From Mizuhopecten yessoensis (Eukaryota), in contig NW_018408761.1 of the NCBI RefSeq assembly GCF_002113885.1, positions 997,580 to 1,061,579 of the forward strand: a stretch of DNA of 64,000 nt. Direction: 5' to 3'. A program made the translations under genes and the position numbers. Shown in pieces: positions 20,571 to 56,228 of this stretch; the stretch's first letter is position 1; the number at the start of each line of letters is the position of its first letter. The notes under the pieces were generated by a model. The model was given only the letters and a program-made list of their open reading frames with translations. It did no database searches and was not told the DNA's origin.

Positions 20571-21494
20571 TTTAACTCACCTGCCCGAAGGGCAAGTGAG
20601 CTTATGCCATGGTGCGGCGTCCGTCGTCTGTCGTCCGTCTGTCCGGCGTCAACTTTTTACTTTAAACAACTTCTTTTCAGTAACCAAAAGGCCTAGGATG
20701 ATGATATTTGGCCAGTAGCATGCTGGGATGAAGGGCTACCAATTTTGTTCAAATGAATGACCTTGACCAATGTTCAAGGTCACAGGGGTCAAATGTCTTT
20801 AAATATTCAAACAACTTCTGCTCAATAACCAAAAGGCCCAGTGTACTGATATTGGGCCTGTAGCATGCTGGGATGAAGGACTGCCAAGTTTGTTCAAATG
20901 AATGACCTTGACCAACTTTCAAGGTCAAAGGGGTCAAATGTCTTAAAATCTTCAAACAACCTCTTCTCAATAACCAAAAGGCCAATGGAACTGATATTAG
21001 GCCTGTATCATGCTGGGATGAAGGGCTACCAAGTTTGTTCAAATAAATGACCTTGACCAACTTTGAAGGTCACTGGGGTCAGATGTCTTAAAATCTTCAA
21101 ACAACTTCTTCTCAATAACCAAAAGGCCCACGGTACTGATATTGAACCTGTAGCATGCTGGGATGAAGGACTACCAAGTTTGTTAAAATGAATGACCTTG
21201 ACCAATTTTCAGGGTCACAGGGGTCAAATGTCTTTAAATCTTCAAACGACTTCTTCTCAATAACCAAAAGGCCCAGGGTACTGAAATTGGACCTGTAGCA
21301 TGCTGGGATGAAGGACTACCAAGTTTGTTCAAATGAATGACCTTGACCAACTTTCAACCTAATGTCCTTGTTTGACAATCAAGGTCACAGGCATCATATG
21401 TTTAAATCTTTTAATAGGTTCTTATGAAATCTTATGATTACAAGTGTGAGATTAATACCAGGTGAGCGATGCAGGCCCATTGGGCCTCTTGTTT
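20571..21494 (+). mobile_element. Composite non-autonomous element, family A (ends TTAACTCACCTGCCCGAAGGGCAAGTGAGCTTATGCCATGG... / CCAGGTGAGCGATGCAGGCCCATTGGGCCTCTTGTTT), with internal approximately 120-bp units
   Basis: There are 6 units of ..AACAACTTCTTCTCAATAACCAAAAGGCCCA.GGTACTGATATTGGGCCTGTAGCATGCTGGGATGAAGG.CTACCAAGTTTGTTCAAATGAATGACCTTGACCAACTTTCAAGGTCACAGGGGTCAAATGTCTT. The termini are inverted (AGCTCACCTG / CAGGTGAGC). Confidence 0.7.
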
Positions 21495-24158: not shown

Positions 24159-24299
24159 GTGTTCCTGTTAGCTGTTGAAAAGTTACCAGAGAAAGCCCTC
24201 ATCAATGTAGTCAGTTTTGGCACATCTTACTCGGAACTCTTTCCTTCACCTCAAAAGATGACAAAACAGACTTTACAGAAAGTTACAGAATTTGTACAG
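24159..24299 (+). CDS. PARP4: PARP4-like exon 20 (VWA)
   Basis: Acceptor TTAACCAACAG|. VFLLAVEKLPEKALINVVSFGTSYSELFPSPQKMTKQTLQKVTEFVQ. Donor CAG|GTAAGA. Confidence 0.85.
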
Positions 24300-25165
24300 G
24301 TAAGATTTTCACTTTGTATGATTTCTTGTTCAAGGCATTATCTTACAATGATTTCACATTTCAGAACAGAAAGGACTTACCCAGTGAAACATGCTCACTC
24401 ACGCTTAGTTTCGATCACTTCATTATAATGGATTTTTTTTATGCTCCTTGAATGATTTTTTCGGTAGAAAATATATAACCATCACTTATATGAGCATTAT
24501 TTACAATATATTACATCGGATGAAATGTATTAGAGAAAACCACCTTAATTGTAAGTATCTTTTCTGTGCTTCATTTTAAACCTGGTTTACTTTGTATATA
24601 ATATAGCCCAAAACAGCTGAAAAGTATGTAGATTTATGGTTTATAGTTACAGTGCAATTGTTTTACTTAGTTTACAACACAAACTTTACATCAACATTTT
24701 AAACAGAAATATGTTACAGCAAATATTTCAAAATTAAGGAAAATATCAAGGAATATCAAGGTGACAGATGGGTCCATTTTCAATATAATTTTGATTAATT
24801 TTATTCAGCATTTTGGTGGCTTTTTAATCTAGAAAGTTGGATTTTGAGTTTTTAAAGTGAATTCAGACAGATGATTCTAGTACTTCTGTAAGTTTGAATA
24901 AACCACAAATAAGTTGAAATGATAGTTAAATGGGGATACACATGTTACAAGTCTACAATGTATCTCTGCCTAGTTGTTTAACAATACTACATTACATTAA
25001 TATTTCCCAGTTTAGATTCCAGAGGAAATTCCAAAATCCCATCAATGTTTTACTCAAATATAACATGAAACTGAATTTTAACATTGTACAAAAGAAGAAC
25101 TATGCTGAAACAAAAACTTCTTCCTTATAACTGAGGAAGTGTACCAAATCGCTGCTCCTTTTGCA

Positions 25166-25340
25166 TTATAGATCTACACCTGGAAAGGTTGTGGAATTTC
25201 TGTTTTCATCTCCAATAATTATGTTCGTTGAACCAGTAGTGGATGATTCAACAGGTAATGTTGTTGGATCCATAGGGTTTGAATCCCGAAGTATTAAACC
25301 AGTTGTTGTTGAATGAGTAGTTGAATCAGTTGTTATACGC
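25166..25340 (-). CDS. Candidate nested gene, exon 3 (Ser/Thr-rich tail)
   Basis: Acceptor TTTAAACTCGACAG|. (R)RITTDSTTHSTTTGLILRDSNPMDPTTLPVESSTTGSTNIIIGDENRNSTTFPGVDL. Stop TAA at 25168-25166. 594+200+175 = 969 nt = 323 codons, so the model is frame-consistent. Confidence 0.35.
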
Positions 25341-25384
25341 CTGTCGAGTTTAAAAGTGAATAAATATTAGATTGGAATAATGCA

Positions 25385-26977
25385 TCCTACCAGGATTGGC
25401 CCTAAGCTACTTCAAGGTCATAGGAGTCAACTATGTCAAAAACTTCTAACGACTTTTTCTAAAAAAACGAGGCCAAAAATTGTACTATTTGGCAAGCAGC
25501 TTCTTGGGAAAGAGCCCAATAAAGTTTGCAAACAAATATTACTTTGATCCACTTTCAAGGTTGCAGGGATCAGACATGCCAAATATTCAAACAACTTCTT
25601 TTGAAAAACAAAAATAACCAAGAGTCATGATATTTGGGTATAGGCTTTCTGGGGTACATTCAGCCAAAGTTTGCTAAATAAAATTACTTTGACTTACTTT
25701 CAAGTTGAAAGGGTTCAAAAGAAGGCATAGAATCATGATATTTGGCCAGTAGCTTTCTGGGACAGAGCCATACAATGTGTGTGGGGGGAAAAAGTGGGCT
25801 TGACCTACTTTGAAGGTCCCCAGAGTCAGATATAAAATAACTAGAGTCATGGTATCTTGCTGGTTGCTTTCTAGGATGGAGCCCATCATCATTTCCATGT
25901 CAAGAGTTGACCTTGACATACTTTCAAGGTCACAGACGTCAAATATGTCAAGAAATTCAAATGACTTCTTTCAAAAGGCCTGGAATCATGACAATTTGAA
26001 TGATCCCAAGAATGTATAGGTTGAAAAAAGAAATGACTGACCTTTGACTATCCAGGTCACAAACATAAAATTGTGCTGAGTCATTTAGGGCAAATAAGGT
26101 GTAGATTAAGTACATTCACAATTTCATATTACTGGTATTGTTGAAATAAACCAATTAAATATTACAGACGTCCACTAATATCTTGCACACCAAATCACTT
26201 TACACATTGGACAAGTGAGGAATACAGGCACTTTTTACCACCTGTTAGATTTAGGTCAATTATTACATCACCTTCATTATTTTCATTCTTGACTACCAAA
26301 AGGCCTAGGGTGATGATATTTGGCCAGTAGCATGCTGGAATAAAGGACTGGCAAGTTGTTCAAATGAATGACCCTGACCAATAGTCAAGGTCACAGGAGT
26401 CAAATTTATTGAAAAAATTCAAACAACTTCTTCTGAATAACCAAGAAGCATAGGGAGGTTATATTTGGCCAATAACATGCTGAGATGAAAGGTTATCAAG
26501 TTGAAGAGAATGAACTTCAACCGTATTCAAGGTCACAGGGTTCAAATTTGTTAAAAACTTCAAACAACTTCTTCTGAATAACCAAATGACATAGGGTAAT
26601 GTTATTTAGCCAGTAATATACTGCAATGCATGGTTATCAAATTTGTTCGAATGAATGACTTTGACCTATTTTCAAGGACACAGGGGTCAAATTTGTTTAT
26701 ATGATGTGTTAAAAGTGAATAAATAACTAGACTAACCATCTTTAGTTCAGATCAATAAAATATGTTCAAATCTTCCAACAAAGATTCACAAAGATACATA
26801 AGGTGTAGAGTAATAAAATGTTTTGAGGAAGACCCAAAAAAGTGTATAGCCTGTTTTAACAGCTAAATGAGTTTCTGATACTCCCTTTGATAAACATGTA
26901 TCGTATCCAAAAGGTTGAAAAATTAAAAAAAATAAAATTTAGGTGAGCTAGCTATCAAGGCCCCTGGGCAGTTTGTT
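25385..26977 (+). mobile_element. Degenerate family A-type element (diverged approximately 120-bp 'TTCAAGGTCACAGG.GTCAAAT' units)
   Basis: Diverged copies of the 20571-21494 unit run throughout. Tail-like TTAGGTGAGCTAGCTATCAAGGCCCCTGGGCAGTTTGTT ends about 26977. The 5' boundary is approximate. Confidence 0.5.
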
Positions 26978-27391
26978 GACTATGTTCTGCATTAAGGTTC
27001 ATGCAACTTTACATATTTATGTGCTTTTATCAGAAGAAAATGTCCCACAATATTTTTAAATCCTTGACTATGACCTTGACCTCTATGAAATTGCTTTGGG
27101 TCTTAAGTGTGGGAAGTGGACATCCCTGTCTAACAGACACATTTCTAGTTGAACCTGAAAAGAAGTTTCAGTCGTTCAATTGATGACAACCACGAATATG
27201 GGATTTACTCTGAAAAAGGCCTGTATTCTTTGTGTAAGATTAGAAAACAATGTTAGTATATAACAAAAATTCAAGTTATCTGACAGACACATGGTTTAAG
27301 CTGATTTAAGGCTAAGGGGCCAAGCAAATTATATCTCTACACTGAAAAACTTATTTAAAAAACAAAAACGCTAAGATGCAATAAAACTGAC

Positions 27392-27591
27392 CTTGAAATA
27401 GTTGATGGAGAACTTGGGTGTACTGGTGGTGTTAAGGGTTGTGTTACAGTACTCATCTGGTACATCCTGTAGTTGTAGTGTACATCTCCTAGTTGGACAC
27501 GGTTGCTGCCAGCCTGGTACACAAACTTAAACACTACCGCTGTGGTGGCAGCGGTGGGATGTGATAGGTCAGCACTGCATGTGGTGCCAAT
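27392..27591 (-). CDS. Candidate nested gene, exon 2
   Basis: Acceptor ATACCACTACAG|. IGTTCSADLSHPTAATTAVVFKFVYQAGSNRVQLGDVHYNYRMYQMSTVTQPLTPPVHPSSPSTIS. Donor CAAG|GTCAGT, phase 2. Confidence 0.4.
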
Positions 27592-27865
27592 CTGTAGTGG
27601 TATCACATCAGTGGAATAGCATGTCGATGTGAGATTTGTCCACGAGATGATGTCTGTTGTTGTTTAAATCCAAACTGTTTGTTTGGCCTCTTGTCAAATT
27701 TTAAAATGGTAACACTAGTTTTTGACTGACTAGTAGTAAGTTTTGACAAATCAGCCAGTTTGAGCAACTCAGTTGTTTCCATTGTTGCAACGTCCTCTTG
27801 ATTGGGATAAAAGTTCATATAAATCCCTGCCTCACTTAGATGGCTTTCCATGATGTACTTCTCAC

Positions 27866-28459
27866 GGTTGAATTTATCTGGACTCGAGAATTGTATAACA
27901 TTCTTTGAGTCAATAACACTAACACAAGAATAGAACCACTTAACATAATTGTTAGTCCAAGGATCTTGGTAAATAGCAGACATTTTGTGTCAGTTTTTCT
28001 CTTGTTTTTTGATAGTTTCGTGTTCTGCAAATCCTTTTTCGAAAATGTGACACTGATTATGGTCAAGACCTCTAACATCACTGCTATGGCCTTAACCATT
28101 TGTAAAATACTGACTGCCACCTTGCAACATCCTGCAATGTAGACATTAAGGAATATCAATGGAACATTTTCCCATACCAAAATCACATTTGCTCCGTCCA
28201 ATAGCCATGAGGGGAGGTGACTCTCATCCTTCACATCCATAATTATAACAATCACCTCTGTTATGTAAGTCATGGTTCCTATAACAGAGAAGGCAAGAAG
28301 TGATGACATCACACTACATGTACTAGGAAATGGTTCAAATACAAGGCCTTGTTCCAGGCCACTGACCTCATAATAAAACAGCCAATCACAAATTAGGTCA
28401 AAGGTCAACGCCAGAGATGAGATGATGAGAATCAAAATTTTGTTTGTGCGGGAATCCAT
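27866..28459 (-). CDS. Candidate nested antisense gene in PARP4 intron 20, exon 1: multi-pass membrane protein
   Basis: ATG at 28459. MDSRTNKILILIISSLALTFDLICDWLFYYEV...ILGLTIMLSGSILVLVLLTQRMLYNSRVQINST. Five hydrophobic 18-23 aa segments. Donor ACC|GTGAGA, phase 0 (the raw ORF runs on to a stop at 27836). Confidence 0.5.
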
Positions 28460-31334
28460 CTCTGTAGGAAATTCTTGATTTGTTTTGTCTCAACTGGTTA
28501 GTAAATCAAGTACGCTAGTGATGTCTGAAGTATATGTTATAAAATGACACCTCTTTTAGAGCCTATCACTTTTGGCCTCAACCCTTTTCCTATAATAACA
28601 AATGATGATAAATAGAAATACTTGGCGAAATAAAATTAGAGGTTATATATTTTGACAAAAATGATGTTACAAAATTTACTTGGTAAAGTTACCATTCTTG
28701 ATGCAAATCTATGAAGAAAATTGTTATCATTAAACATGTTTACCTATCAGCATTTTCCTGTAATTGTGTTTTTCAGCAAGAATGTTGGAATTTGAAAAAA
28801 TTCAAAAATGATGATATTGACTCTTAAATCAAATCTGGAAGACAAACATATTTTTCATTACACATGAATCGCATGTTGCTTATCGCTTACCTTTTGTAAC
28901 TTTAATAACAAATTTACCTGTATGCACATAGTGGTTTTCCTCGTCTTGAATGTTTATAATCAAGCTGTTTATCCTAGAGGACTTTGAGAAGAAAATGAAG
29001 CCCGCAATATCTTTCTACAACCATGGCTACAAATCTGTCTATTACTGAGATGTAGTAGATGGATTCTCAACAGTTATCTATTATATGAAGATGAGACTAA
29101 GACTGGTTAGTCCTAAGTGTATTTATTCTGTGTTGGGTGGCCCATGTTAAAAGTGATTATTACAGACATGTATTGTAAGTTTGTCTTGTCTTCTTTAAAT
29201 CATTATTGATCCATATGCATATATTTTGGTAATATTTTCTTAATTTAAAAATGATTGTTTACCGTATTCAGACTTCATGTTTGAGTTATGTTAATTTGAC
29301 CCTCCTGTACGGAACTGCAACTGTAGTTCTGGTAATATAACACTTCAGTGATTATTTAATTAAATATATATAAAAACAGATATTTAGCTTTTGACCTTGT
29401 TAACATTATCAATTTAAATTATAGGTTGTTTTTATATAATATGCAGCAATTTTTATGATTATGTGTGACAATATCCTTAATTTGGTAAACTCGTGACGAT
29501 ACAGAAATTGGCTTGTTCTCAGGGTTCACTGTTGGTGCTGTATGGTCTTTTTGTGAACATTGTTTACATTTGTATGAATTAAACATACACATCTCTGTAA
29601 AATTGTTTAGAAGTTTAAAAGTCCACCAGTATTTGTCCGTCCTGTTAACATACACATTTTGTGCTTGTCAGTTAATGTTATTTGTGACAGCTTTTCAACT
29701 GGATTTCTAAACAGTGATATAAGATATCTCTGTAGCTGTGGCTAAATCATCGGAGCAATGTAACGCTCTTTTTTCATTAAAACTGTGTTTAGGAAATAAT
29801 TTTTATGAACAAATTGAGGCAGCATAAGAGGGTTTTACGGTAATTCAACGTAAAGTTTGAAAATATTTATTCAATAAAAGAAAGGTTTTTTCTTATCAAA
29901 AAATTGTATAATTTTGATTTGTTAAATATACTTAAGTATTTGATAAAATATTAAATACTACTTCACTGTCTAAACCAGGCGGTTCAAATATAGATTTTTA
30001 TTTTGTCTAAAATAAGAATTTGGTTCCAGCAATGAAAATCTATTATACCGTTAAACAATTAGACTATCTACCATCCAGAACATGCAGGAAATCGGCTATC
30101 ATTGCTTGGTCCTAGCTAGGAGTGTTTGTCCACACTTATAGTTTTTGGTGATTATTTCAGAATCCAGAAGTCCAAAACTTATGAAATTTTATATGGTGAT
30201 TTACTGTTATATGCACATATGCAATGGTAGTTATAAAAGTTCATAAGGTCAAAGTCAATATGCACATGCATGTGCAATGGGAGTTTAAAAAGAGCGTAAG
30301 GTCAGTCACTATTGCTAAAACTTCATTGCCTGTGTGACCTGTCAGTGTTGCATTTTTAATTGTTGGTTATGCTTCATTTATACATTGTAGCACCATATAA
30401 CCTTGAACCCGTAATCCAAGATTGCAACAAGTCAAGGTCAAGGTCACTGATACTAATAATAAAACAGGAGTGATTTACTGTTAAAACTACATTTTATGAC
30501 TTGGTCAGTGTTTGTTATGATTGCAAATGTTACTTGGCAGATATCCTGTACATCTATAATGCCATATTTCCTTAATCCTGAAATCTAAGATGGCCGACAT
30601 CTATTGCTTCTGACTGGCTGAGACATAACTTTTGTTTTGTTAATACAATTTTGTTCATATGTCATGGAAAATGATGCTTATAAGGGACAGTCCATATGGT
30701 GAATATGAACATATTGTCCGATACCCATGAAACAAGTTGGCTGACATAGTTTCTCATTGGCTGGGGTTTCAACTTTGAAGTCATATTACCTAGTCTGTAA
30801 CTTTTTATTACAATGTTCCAAATTCCTAGTGATCACTGCATAAGACTTTTTCTTCGCAATTTTGCATTCTAGATAAACTGTCAGGATGGGGCCATTATTT
30901 GCTGACCTATATCTGAGTTCTATGTAATTGGTTCCTGATTTAAATACCTACTAAATTGTGTTCACATTGCATAAATCGCATTGTATATACTGCATTACCC
31001 CAAAATAATTTTGATTTTTCCTTATACATAATGTAATTGCATTAAAAAAGCCAAACAACACTTTCAAGGGCATAGTTAATGAATATTTATTCAAAAATAA
31101 TTTTGCACATAACACAGCATTAATGATTATGCTGTAACTTAATTCATCATCAAGCATCCATTCAGAATTTAAAATTAAAAATACTGCGACAAACATTGTG
31201 GTATAATTCACACCTGGGAAAATCATTGCAACAGTAAATATCACATGAAAGAAATGGGATGTTTAAATTTTGAATTGATGTGATTATTGAATAACGTCAA
31301 ATATACTGATTATAATGTTATAATGATATTTCAG

Positions 31335-36078: not shown

Positions 36079-37118
36079 TTAGCTCACCTATGAGCTTATG
36101 GTATGGCGTGTTGTCACTCGTCTGTCATCCGCCCGTCATTGAGTCTGTCGTTCATCGTCCCATCAACGTTTTCTTTGAATGGCTTGTTCTCAAGAACTGG
36201 AGGACCTAGGGCCATGATATTTGTTCAGTAGGTACCTGGGACAGAGTGCTGTAATATTTTCTCAAATAAATGACCTTAACTTACTTTCTATGTCACAGGG
36301 GTTAAATATATAAAAAAACCTTTAAACAACTTCTTCTGAATAACCAGGAGGCCCAGAGTAATAATACTAGGTCAGTATGTACCTGGCATGAAGTGCTATA
36401 AAGTGTCCTCAAACAAATGACCTTGACTTACTTTCAAGGTCACAGGGGTCAAATGTGTTTAAAAACCTTTAAAACATCTTCTTCTGAATTTCTGAATAAC
36501 CAGTAGGCTAAGAGTCATGATATTTGGTTTGGCCAGTAGGTTCATGGGACAGAGTGCTATAAGTTTTCCTCCAATAAATAACCTTGACCTACTTTCAAGG
36601 TCATGGGTTAAATATGTAAAAAATAAATTAAACATCTTCTTCTAAATAACCAGGAAGCCCAAAGTAATAATACTTGGCCAGTAGGTACCTGGCATGAAGT
36701 GCTATAAAGTTTCCTCAAATAAATGATCTTGACATACTTTCAATGTCACAGGGTTCAAAATTGTAAAAATCTTTAAACAACTTCTTCTGAATAGCTAAGA
36801 GGCTTAGAGCAATGATATTTGGCTAGTAGGTACCTGGGACAGAATGCTATCACGTTTCCTCATATAAATTACCTAGACCTCCTTTACAGTCACAGGGTTC
36901 AAATATGTGAATACTTCTTCTGCAATACCAGGATGCCCTCATTGATGATGTTTGACAAGTAGCATGCTGGGATAGAGTAGTATAAAGCTTCATTTAGTCT
37001 GGAGCATTCTTAAGCCAAGGAAACTCAATATATTAAAATATTTACAAAAGTACTTTTATTGAGAATATTTTCCCATGATTGCTCAAATAACCAGGTGAGT
37101 GATAAGAGGGCCTCTTGT
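36079..37118 (+). mobile_element. Composite non-autonomous element, family A, with approximately 120-140-bp internal units
   Basis: Head TTAGCTCACCTATGAGCTTATGGTATGGCGTG. Tail AACCAGGTGAGTGATAAGAGGGCCTCTTGTA. The internal units are related to those at 20571-21494. Confidence 0.65.
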
Positions 37119-42549: not shown

Positions 42550-42726
42550 TCCCAATCGAGATACACACCCTGACTGGTAGGACTATCCCCGTGAGTGTGT
42601 CCGAGGGCGACACCGTGTCTGACTTGAAGAATAAGATCCATCAGATAGATGGACTTGACCCAGAGCAGCAGAGATTGATTGTTGGTGGGAAACCGCTGAA
42701 GGATCTCGCTGTTCTCTCCGATCTTG
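42550..42726 (+). CDS. PARP4: PARP4-like exon 30 (ubiquitin-like domain, first three quarters)
   Basis: Acceptor TTATTCCCATTGCAG|. (F)PIEIHTLTGRTIPVSVSEGDTVSDLKNKIHQIDGLDPEQQRLIVGGKPLKDLAVLSDL, which aligns with ubiquitin [58 protein letters not shown]. Donor CTTG|GTAATT, phase 1. Confidence 0.85.
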
Positions 42727-51232: not shown

Positions 51233-51459
51233 GACATGAATGAGTATGATCAGATATATGGTAAGAAGGTGCATACGGAAAAGGACAAAAGCTGTACTGA
51301 TGATGGAAAAAACCCGGTGAAGATGTCCTCATTGTTTTCTCCTTTTAGGCAATCCTTACGAATGATGGCTCCAAGGAAACAGTTAGCAACCAAAGCTGCC
51401 AGAAAATCTGCACCTGCAAACTTTGATGAAAATGAGGAGGAGCAGAATGAGGATGACAG

Positions 51460-51497
<38 letters not shown>

Positions 51498-54313
51498 TTG
51501 AAAAGATGGGCAACTTTAGCTGCATGGCACTTCCAGATGACAACGTGGTTGATGATGCTACGAACAAGAAACAGGAAGTGTCAGATGTAGGAAGAATACC
51601 AGACTCTCCACTCTCAGCAACACAGTTTGGCCCCTTGTCTCCAAAATGTTCAGATTCATTTGGTACAAACTTTGAAAAATTTGAAATCTCTCAGTATTTA
51701 GATGAAGACATGGAGATTGATTTAGATACTGAAGACCCGGCATTCCTCATTCTCACTTCTGAAATATCTGACATATTTTCACCTTCAATGGCAGGCCATT
51801 CTCAGGACACTCCAGCCTATATATCAACCTCCCCATCTTACAAACCAACTTCCCCATCCTATTCGCCCACTTCCCCATCTTACAAACCAACTTCCCCATC
51901 CTATTCGCCCACCTCCCCATCTTACAAACCAACTTCCCCATCCTATTCGCCCACCTCCCCATCTTACAAACCAACTTCTCTATCCTATTCGCCCACTTCC
52001 CCATCTTACAAACCAACTTCTCCATCCTATTCACCAAATAGAAGAGCACGAAGAGCCAAATCAACATTTGAGGATTTCCAACATGAATCAACATCAAACA
52101 ATAAAGATTTTGTGGTTTCAGGTTCAAGACAAGCAAAGTCAAGCAGCACATCTAGTGAACATGGTTTGTGTGGAGCTCCAGTGCAAGCAGAACCAGGCAG
52201 TAAACCAAGTCAGAGCTTCAATTTTAATGCTTCGCTACAAACAGCATCAAGCAATGAACCAACACAAAGTTTGGGATTGGGGGCTCCAAACCTAGCAGAA
52301 CTAGGCGGTAAACCAAGTCAGGGGTTCAATTTTAGTGCTCCTCTAGTAACAGCATCAAGAAATATATCAACACAAAGTTTGGGATTGGGGGCTCCAAACC
52401 TAGCAGAACCAAACACAATGCCAAGTCAAGGGTTTTCCTTTGGAGCTCGAATGCAAACAACTCAAAGCGCTTCACCAGCCGAAGGTTTCAGTTTTTCTCA
52501 GAATCAAACATTGCAGAGCATTACCAGTAAAGGAAGCCATTGTTTTGGATTTGGGACTTCAAAACCAGCCGGAGCAAGCAGAACGACAAGTCAAGGGTTT
52601 TCCTTTGGCGCTCAAATGCAGTCCCAACGATGCAATATACCAACCCAAGATTTCTATTTTGGAGCTTCAAATTCAGCAGGTTTTGGAGATGACGGTGACA
52701 GACGTGGTGGTTATGGAGGTGTCAGTGTTAGACCTGGTGGTTATGGAGATGACAGTGACAGACGTGGTGGTTATGGAGGTGTCAGTGTTAGACGTGGTGG
52801 TTATGGAGGTGTCAGTGAGGGACTTGGTGGTTATGGAGGTGTCAGTGTTAGACGTGGTAGTTATGGAGGTGACAGTGTTAGATGTGGTGGTTATGGAGGT
52901 GTCAGTGAGGAATGTGGTGGTTATGGAGGTGTCAGTGAGGGACTTGGTAGTTATGGAGGTGTCAGTGAGGGACTTGGTAGTTATGGAGATGACGGTGTCG
53001 GACGTGGTGGTTATGGAGATGACAGTGTCGGACGTGGTGGTTATGGAGGTGACAGTGTCGGAGGTGATGGTTATGGAGGTGTCAGTGAGGGATTTGGTGG
53101 TTATGGAGGTGACAGTGAGGGATGTGGTGGTTATGGAGGTGTCAGTGTTAGATGTGGTGGTTATGGAGGTGTCAGTGAGGGACGTGGTGGTTATGGAGGT
53201 GACAGTGAGGGACGTGGTGGTCCTAGACTTGCTGGTTCTAAAGATGGACATGTTTCTTACATAGAAACAGCACCAACATTTACATATTTGAAGGATCTTG
53301 ACTTGAATTTAGCAAAACATGATCCAAAAACTAGGATATTGAAGGAAAATGACAGAAGACCTTCCAGTGTAACAGAGAAGGATCTGCCTTCACAGCCTTT
53401 CAGACATGTACAGGATAAAATGTTCCCACCAGACTTTGATGAATCCTTATTACCTAAACAAAAGAGAAAAATTCCTCCTGTTGGAAGAGGAGGTTCTGGA
53501 TTCACTGCAAGGAATGACCAGGGTCCTGCTGAAACAACCAAAGAACAAGGTCGAAGGTCATTAAAGTCAGTCAGAGGCGCAATGCATGGTGCAAGATCAA
53601 GAGACAGAAATAGGGAACAATCTCGTGAGCTTATTGTGCTGGATAAGAGTAAAAAACTAAGTTTGAGTCATGACAGAAGGCGGAGGAGTTTGAGTAGAAG
53701 TTTGAGTCGAGACAGAAGACAGAGGAGTTTGAGTAGAAGTTTGAGTCGAGACAGAAGGCGGAGGAGTTTGAGTAGAAGTTTGAGTCGAGACAGAAGGCGG
53801 AGGAGTTTGAGTAGAAGTTTGAGTCGAGGAAGGGGGAGAAGAGACTTGGAAAGATGTTACAGTAGAGATAGAGCAAGAAAGGAAAATAAAAAAATGCACA
53901 GATCAAGTGGAAATAATGATACAAACAGTAGGAATAAAAATAGGGACAAAGCAGGAAGCAAAATAGACAGAGATCCTGCAAGAGAAAGTAAGAAACAGAT
54001 AAAGCATAAAAATGAAAAGAAGGAGCAAACAAAGGCTGATGAACAGGTTGTCAAAACATTTGGGAAAAAAGGGAAGAAAAGGGAACAGACAAGGGATGAT
54101 GAAGAGATTGTCAAAACTGGAGGGAAGAACCTGTCAGGAAAGTTGGAATATGATGATCATGAGAAAATGGACTTTACAGTGGACATGGCACCAACTTTGA
54201 AAGTCTGGGATGTAACATCAGAGACAGGCAAGGACATTGTGAAATTCATAAAGTATATTTCTGATTCAATCTTCTTTTATATACAAAAGATCTGTAATTT
54301 TCTACAAATTCAA
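51233..54313 (+). CDS. PARP4: PARP4-like exon 32: 3081-nt low-complexity exon (H3-tail copy, poly-Asp, CTD-like heptads, FG-like, GGYGG, RS and Lys-rich modules)
   Basis: Acceptor TTCTGTATTTCAG| with phase 0 from exon 31. Single open frame of 1027 codons (the track ORF 51236-54337 is the same frame). Donor CAA|GTGAGC after ..KICNFLQIQ (compare vertebrate PARP4 ..SCFLQIK..). An alternative weaker donor is ATCT|GTAATT after 54293. Confidence 0.8.
51368..51418 (+). other. Histone H3 tail copy: [17 protein letters not shown] (identical to H3 residues 15-31)
   Basis: Direct translation of GCT CCA AGG AAA CAG TTA GCA ACC AAA GCT GCC AGA AAA TCT GCA CCT GCA in the exon 32 frame. Confidence 0.9.
51461..51496 (+). 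repeat. (GAT)12 coding microsatellite, poly-Asp tract
   Basis: Twelve uninterrupted GAT codons within [18 protein letters not shown]. Confidence 0.95.
51824..52039 (+). repeat. RNA polymerase II CTD-like heptad array (42-bp two-heptad unit, about 10 heptads)
   Basis: [72 protein letters not shown]. Confidence 0.9.
52214..52687 (+). other. FG-nucleoporin-like segment
   Basis: SFNF, GFNFS, GFSFG, GFSFS, CFGFG, GFSFG, FYFG and AGFG motifs, separated by uncharged S/T/Q/N/A/G/P-rich spacers. Includes a 34-aa duplicated unit ([20 protein letters not shown]). Confidence 0.7.
52700..53221 (+). repeat. 30-bp coding tandem repeat, about 17 copies of the decapeptide (R/L/C)GGYGG(V/D)S(V/E)(R/G)
   Basis: [50 protein letters not shown]...[14 protein letters not shown]. 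Other frames on both strands stay open across it because of the repeat. Confidence 0.9.
53657..53833 (+). repeat. 42-bp coding tandem repeat, 4 copies of [14 protein letters not shown] (RS-domain-like)
   Basis: [62 protein letters not shown]. Confidence 0.9.
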
Positions 54314-54344
54314 GTGAGCTTAAGTGAACTTTCTTGATTAGCTT

Positions 54345-55733: not shown

Positions 55734-56228
55734 TTTTAGCTCACCTGGCCCCTTGGCCCATGCCGTGGTGCGGCATCCGGCGTCAATATTTTACTTTAAA
55801 CAACTTCTCAATAACCAAAAGGCCCTAGGTACTGATATTGGGCCTGCAGCATGCTGGGATGAAGGGCTACCAAGTTTGTTCAAATGAATGACCTTGACCC
55901 ACTTTCAAGGTCACAGGAGTCAAATATCTTAAAATCTTCAAACAACTTCTTCTCAATAACCAAAAGGCCCAGGGTACTGATATTGGGCCTGTAGCATGCT
56001 GGGATGAAGGGCTACCAAGTTTGTTCAAATGAATGACCTTGACCCACTTTCAACCCAATATCCTTGTTCGACATTCAAGGTCACAGGCGTCATATGTTTA
56101 AATCTTGTAATAGGATCTTATGAATCAAACACTGATATTCTGCCTGTAGCTGTATTTTAGTCCACTCTTAAGATTACAAGTGTGAAATAATACCAGGTGA
56201 GCGATGCAGGCCCATTGGGCCTCTAGTT
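55734..56228 (+). mobile_element. Family A composite element, about 94 bp after exon 33
   Basis: Head TTTTTAGCTCACCTGGCCCCTTGGCCCATGCCGTGGTGCGGCATCC. About 120-bp units as in 20571-21494. Tail ACCAGGTGAGCGATGCAGGCCCATTGGGCCTCTAG. Confidence 0.65.

Follow-up and report, generated by a model that had tools for sequence, protein, structure and literature searches.

DUF8357 (Pfam PF27623) is a mollusc-restricted, uncharacterised protein family that is encoded without introns and combines five transmembrane (TM) helices with a following beta domain carrying conserved cysteines; no mention of it was found in the papers searched. One of its members, LOC132552504 of Ylistrum balloti (protein P0011; locus L005, 10001-11278), lies antisense within the gene for a 487-aa NLE/WD40 protein that covers the entire 21-kb locus. 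Nested antisense placement is thus known for working members too, and it is a habit of this intron-less family rather than a peculiarity of the PARP4-like locus described here. That locus lies in a 64,000-nucleotide stretch of Mizuhopecten yessoensis DNA (contig NW_018408761.1, positions 997,580 to 1,061,579; hereafter the window, numbered from its first nucleotide), on the reverse strand within an intron of a PARP4-like gene. A sequence-only reading had proposed a spliced antisense gene at this place, encoding a five-TM protein with a mucin-like tail, and had added the caveat that a frameshifted, decaying intron-less copy would look much the same. We find that the locus is, in all probability, a frameshifted and 3'-truncated pseudogene of an intron-less DUF8357 gene.

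The copy shares with DUF8357 members the order of the TM motifs (D.W, GLVFxP, W.E..P.I and KA) and a collinear series of beta motifs ((Y)..(V)GIYMNF, CY....TC, F.FVY, GD..YNY and C...P.FS..YFKV); it is 42-51% identical to the closest of them and intron-less as they are. It differs from them in having three frameshifts and an in-frame stop, in lacking the terminal WKTG..C..TG..P..C block, and in reading CCK for CRE and Glu for the second Gly of GLVFGP. Like LOC132552504 it is single-exon and nested antisense in another gene, whereas LOC132552504 has an unbroken 1278-nt open reading frame (ORF) and a different host gene, with no PARP4 synteny. Processed pseudogenes offer a further comparison, as the copy is likewise intron-less, disabled and away from the other family loci seen. 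However, the parent family is itself intron-less, so that the absence of introns is uninformative, no poly(A) tract follows the copy, and the truncation is at the 3' end while retrocopies are usually truncated at the 5' end.

Results

An ATG at 28459 on the minus strand opens a 207-codon ORF (28459..27836) that is closed by a TAA at 27838-27836, and ORFs in the other two frames come next, at 27983..27603 and 27606..27355; the overlapping three-frame arrangement is as the sequence-only reading had described it. A Kyte-Doolittle scan gave five hydrophobic segments, coinciding with the five long helices in the AlphaFold model of P0001, the closest intact relative. The locus does derive from a gene for a five-TM protein, as had been proposed. 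An exhaustive phmmer search with this ORF against 1.84 billion representative proteins returned 76 relatives, the best being P0001 (E 7e-41, 52% identity). Stop-to-stop stretches of at least 200 aa are scarce, with only five in the six frames of the window; given this and the 76 database relatives, with E-values up to that of P0001, the ORF is not a product of chance.

Almost all of the relatives measure 400-500 aa and match the ORF at their N-terminus, and their precomputed annotation is PF27623. Every member with a named source is molluscan (the scallops Pecten maximus, Ylistrum balloti, Argopecten irradians and Mizuhopecten yessoensis, and the gastropods Littorina saxatilis and Biomphalaria); among them are XP_060066476.1 ('mucin-3A-like', Y. 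balloti), XP_033756636.1 ('mucin-5AC-like', P. maximus) and, from M. yessoensis itself, LOC110446033 and LOC110446052. Two members, P0002 and P0003, were automatically named 'mucin-like' owing to their long Thr/Ser/Pro tails. A Pfam scan of the three ORFs gave no match, the library used being one without PF27623 in which the family members themselves were unmatched too. A word-index protein search with the 207-aa ORF also found nothing, which in view of the 76 relatives from the exhaustive HMMER search is a failure of sensitivity: those relatives include NCBI proteins at 41-45% identity that have several 5-residue words in common with the ORF. Taken alone, the indexed-search negative would wrongly have implied an orphan ORF. 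Public assemblies were also queried for an exact match to the 207-aa product and gave no record, a result of little weight given that a search with the host exons likewise returned no identical PARP4.

Because the relatives exceed the 207-aa ORF (ORF A) by about 200 residues, the rest of the protein was sought in the window. In tblastn searches, family members matched the window collinearly: frame A took residues ~7-180 (28441-27914), frame B residues ~185-297 (27914-27567), frame C residues ~264-348 (27675-27427), and then frame A once more residues ~340-362 (27454-27386). A family hidden Markov model (HMM) of 426 positions, built from 47 full-length members, resolved the same order into four segments, all on the minus strand. 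Segment A (28459-27911, frame A; HMM 6-195, 132 bits, E 4e-39) retains the ATG and the complete five-helix TM domain, which form residues 1-183 of the conceptual protein; past its end, the ORF A reading continues out of register up to the TAA. Segment B (27911-27660, frame B, -1 relative to A; HMM 186-270, E 4e-8) opens the C-terminal beta domain, reading DSKNVIQFSSPDKF...AGIYMNF...LLKLADL...FGFKQ, and in tblastn its frame matches residues ~182-297 of P0002, P0003, P0095 and P0097. The sequence-only reading had named a need of the intact protein for the 27603-27983 frame as the finding that would make the locus a frameshifted pseudogene, and the homology of segment B lies in that frame. Segment C (27660-27457, frame C, a further -1; HMM 275-343, E 2e-9) reads TTDIISWTNLTSTCYSTDVIPLQIGTTCSADL...VVFKFVYQAGSNRVQLGDVHYNYRMYQ and is 44-54% identical in tblastn to residues ~264-348 of its closest relatives. 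The last piece, segment A' (27454-27374), returns to frame A after a third -1-equivalent shift and reads EYCNTTLNTTSTPKFSINYFKVSFIAS, which fits the family motif C.........P.FSL.YFKV. It is the top piece for a C-terminal sub-HMM, weak by itself at 5.1 bits, and its tblastn matches are collinear with the rest (P0002 343-362 to 27454-27386; P0097 340-355 to 27436-27389). An in-frame TAG at 27373-27371 stands at the end of detectable homology.

Modulo three, each of the three indels costs one base. The first, at ~27911 (...GSILVLVLL / DSKNVIQFSSP...), also lacks about four family residues between LVLVLL and DSKNVIQ; the second, at ~27660 (...NKQFGFKQ / TTDIISWTNLTSTCY...), falls in the run TTTAAACAACAACAGAC; and the third is at ~27455 (...GDVHYNYRMYQ / EYCNTTLNTTSTPKFSINYFKV...). 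At every shift the homologous codons adjoin directly, with no intervening sequence, and since the DNA is homologous right up to both sides of each shift there is no room for introns. When the four segments are joined into one repaired translation of 362 aa, a single alignment spans HMM 6-365 and the score rises to 214.3 bits, against 132.8 bits for ORF A alone.

The family ends in a terminal block, W-K-T-G...C..T-G...P...C, with W388, T390, G391, C395, G399 and P403 invariant in our alignment A2. No trace of this block (the last ~60 family positions, WKTG..C..TG..P..D....C) was found in the six frames of the whole window with either the full HMM or the C-terminal sub-HMM, and a C-terminal search of very short stop-to-stop pieces on the minus strand between 20000 and 27560 recovered only 27454-27374 and nothing beyond it. 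These last ~60 positions are missing from the window, and the copy is therefore 3'-truncated.

The coding part of the family has no introns. In all four genomic family loci examined, the coding sequence (CDS) is three times the protein length plus three: 2511 nt in P. maximus (L001), 1512 nt in Y. balloti (L002), 1260 nt in A. irradians (L004) and 1278 nt in a second Y. balloti locus (L005, JAUZWB010000944.1), each in a single exon, the evidence for L005 being the called gene range against the protein length only. Direct translation of L001, L002 and L004 met no internal stop. The entire HMM fell in one frame in these three loci, and it did so too on a 1.8-kb Logan contig of unstated molecule type (L003). 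None of the four genomic relatives sits in PARP4; the genes called around them are a desaturase, a Kv channel and the NLE/WD40 host gene, and the Pecten locus has no called neighbour gene within 10 kb.

The intron that holds the copy (24300-31334, plus strand) is about 7 kb long, of phase 0, with the donor CAG|gtaaga and the acceptor ttcag|GCT, and it interrupts the vWA domain of the PARP4-like gene. On the same strand lie the PARP catalytic exon at ~13.8 kb, two VIT exons upstream of the intron at ~19.6 kb and ~22.0 kb, and three vWA exons at ~23.8 kb (~23778), 24159-24299 and 31335 to ~31522. Concatenation of the three vWA exons gives one continuous VWA_3 match (E 6.7e-23), and database relatives of this gene carry the name PARP4. 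The antisense location within a PARP4-like intron had thus been recognised correctly from the sequence; the spliced gene proposed there is not supported.

In an alignment with 68 members, 33 columns show at least 80% conservation, and the copy retains 25 of them (0.76), compared with a member median of 0.91. Conserved residues are substituted (GLVFGP to GLVFEP, CRE to CCK, a conserved Y to H, and W to L), whereas the change of PQI to PLI is a subfamily trait and not decay, as P0002 and P0003 have it too. A neighbour-joining tree places the copy inside a scallop subfamily (P0001, P0095, P0096, P0097 and P0002), where it has the longest branch. In Tajima relative-rate comparisons the unique changes of the window copy outnumbered those of the relative (m1 > m2) in 15 of 15 triples, with chi-square above 3.84 in five of them. 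Together, the loss of conserved columns and the long branch lend moderate support to a putative relaxation of constraint.

Discussion

A pseudogene is expected to combine homology to a coding family with disabling lesions, and this copy has both, with three frameshifts, a TAG and the loss of about 60 C-terminal codons. A functional DUF8357 gene, in contrast, should encode a five-helix TM domain with the family motifs, should do so in a single uninterrupted frame, and should go on to a complete beta domain. The TM domain and its motifs are there, apart from the G to E and CRE to CCK changes. However, the copy has to be read through frames A, B, C and A before it runs into the TAG, and its beta domain is present only to HMM ~365, with the terminal block absent.

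Some observations weigh against a simple account of decay. The 5' 549 nt, with the ATG and the full TM domain, are free of lesions, while the next 540 nt carry three, so that a truncated product consisting of the TM domain may exist, although all three lesions would fall in one half by chance about 1 time in 8. The second frameshift falls within a short stretch rich in homopolymers, and an assembly error there is conceivable. Furthermore, the conserved-column score of the copy is within the range of the members, 9 of 68 being as low.

The explanation originally put forward, a functional three-exon antisense gene for a 322-aa five-TM protein with a Ser/Thr-rich tail, is extremely improbable. 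Its arithmetic does hold: exons at 28459-27866, 27591-27392 and 25340-25166 on the minus strand add up to 969 nt without breaking the frame, the donors are GTGAGA and GTCAGT, and the acceptors are CAG. All three splice sites within the homologous body are nonetheless homologous codons. Donor 1 (CGT GAG) is the Arg-Glu of FNREKY in frame B, acceptor 1 (CAG, 27592) is the Gln of PLQIG in frame C inside segment C, and donor 2 (AAG GTC AGT, 27391) is the Lys-Val-Ser of the conserved ..YFKVS in frame A; the GT/AG sites of the model are coincidental dinucleotides within ancestral codons. Within the proposed first intron (27865-27592), frames B and C together code for family positions ~195-288, and the spliced product accordingly scores 152.1 bits in two pieces with ~95 conserved positions deleted, in a family whose CDS is intron-less in each of the four genomic loci. 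The last ~65 nt of 'exon 2' would be read outside the ancestral frame, and most of 'intron 2' is interspersed repeat DNA in units of ~141-145 bp (25397-26702). As to the tail, mucin-like Ser/Thr/Pro-rich tails do occur in P0002 and P0003, and the composition of 'exon 3' (25340-25166, minus strand), a Ser/Thr-rich open stretch of 66 codons from stop to stop (25366..25169), is unusual, its S+T fraction of 0.37 being equalled in only 2 of 397 pieces of at least 50 aa. However, it has no detectable family homology (HMM score 0.8), and open stretches of this size are common, with 157 of at least 66 aa in the window. 'Exon 3' may be what is left of a mucin-like tail, or it may be DNA of low complexity, and we do not assign it to the pseudogene.

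Two other explanations start from the homologous body itself. In one, the gene is an intact intron-less DUF8357 gene and the three frameshifts are sequencing or assembly errors. The shifts all go in one direction (one base short, modulo three), as in deletion-biased long reads, the second lies within TTTAAACAACAACA, and the homologous segments have no in-frame stops. Yet with all shifts repaired the TAG at 27373 is still reached and the conserved last ~60 residues are still absent from the window, near-invariant residues are substituted, and frameshifts 1 and 3 are outside homopolymers, the former with its ~4-residue gap. Elsewhere in the window, ORFs of 3.1 kb and 1.4 kb and the PARP, VIT and vWA exons of the host gene are uninterrupted; as they read cleanly, the assembly is not indel-ridden, and we regard this explanation as very unlikely. 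In the other, the copy has decayed, yet its 207-codon ORF continues to be expressed and yields a truncated TM-only protein, as a remnant or with a newly co-opted function. In its favour, the ATG and the five-helix domain are intact over 183 family positions, with every lesion downstream. Against it, near-invariant TM positions have been hit, the distribution of lesions fits chance, and no complete TM-only member was identified, short database entries that are possibly fragments having been left unexamined; we consider it very unlikely. Partial salvage in a wider sense, by antisense expression of either the TM-only ORF or a transcript spliced round the frameshifted middle, is also very unlikely; if true, it would represent a new shortened membrane protein arising from a dying DUF8357 gene.

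For the pseudogene, the lesions suggest the following course. A DUF8357 gene copy would have come to lie, in antisense orientation, in the intron that splits the vWA domain of the PARP4-like gene, and presumably then acquired three frame-disrupting indels near 27911, 27660 and 27455, an in-frame stop at 27373, the loss of its last ~60 codons and substitutions of near-invariant residues, while keeping its start codon and whole TM domain in one frame. On this view the 207-aa ORF is simply the intact 5' portion of the copy, extended as far as the first stop in the wrong frame. For annotation, the locus should be labelled a DUF8357-family pseudogene and be given no gene model. It also illustrates that a GT/AG model which keeps its frame can be drawn through an intron-less copy broken by frameshifts.

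The kind of protein that was lost can be judged from P0001. Its AlphaFold2 model, made from a 13-sequence alignment (mean pLDDT 80.6, pTM 0.74), has helices at 5-33, 46-75, 82-110, 117-147 and 159-181 and an all-beta domain at 182-417. The parent was probably a membrane glycoprotein with an N-in/C-out topology, in which a five-TM bundle would precede an extracellular beta domain of ~230 residues and, in some paralogues, a mucin-like Ser/Thr/Pro tail. N-in/C-out is the likeliest orientation since the loop ahead of helix 5, rich in Lys and Arg, points to the cytoplasmic side, and an extracellular beta domain is likeliest because of its conserved cysteines and the mucin-like tails of some paralogues. 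A Foldseek search of the P0001 model against the PDB gave nothing at E <= 0.001 (the best was TAS2R14, E 0.021), and a PDB sequence-profile search gave no match. The TM domain of the family does bear a weak but repeated resemblance to the XK-related lipid scramblases (PF09815; XKR8, XKR9 and XKR4). The highest score of any family member is 15.8 bits (E 0.007), below the gathering threshold of 24.8. Of 27 members, 3 have such sub-threshold matches, which cover the W.ED.PQ helix; the window ORF has none. We take this as a lead on the family and make no claim of membership.

Other features of the window

The repeat unit of ~141-145 bp found in 25397-26702 also occurs in tandem at 20660-21357, 36205-36908 and 55795-56053, its consensus starting ACCTATATTCAAGGTCACAGGGGTCAAATTTG...; it is thus present in at least four places in the window, all in or near introns of the PARP4-like gene.

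On the minus strand at 1227-2606, a 459-codon ORF (474 codons from stop to stop) whose product abounds in Glu, Lys and Arg and has the look of a coiled coil gave no Pfam match. It probably belongs, as a large exon, to a neighbouring gene on the strand opposite to the host. An open stretch on the plus strand at 42573-42700 reads TGRTIPVSVSEGDTVSDLKNKIHQIDGLDPEQQRLIVGGKPLKD, and is a candidate ubiquitin-like domain exon on the host strand.

A 1033-codon ORF on the plus strand at 51236-54337 also had no Pfam match. It contains 17 residues identical to histone H3 15-31, including the K27 motif ARKS (PDB sequence search, H3 peptides, E 3e-5), together with an acidic run, about ten tandem heptads like those of the RNA polymerase II C-terminal domain (CTD), FG-type and GGYGG repeats, RS-rich repeats and a Lys-rich tail. 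To judge from its sequence, the predicted product may be a histone-tail and CTD mimic, and the ORF may form the final exon of the PARP4-like gene or belong to a gene of its own.

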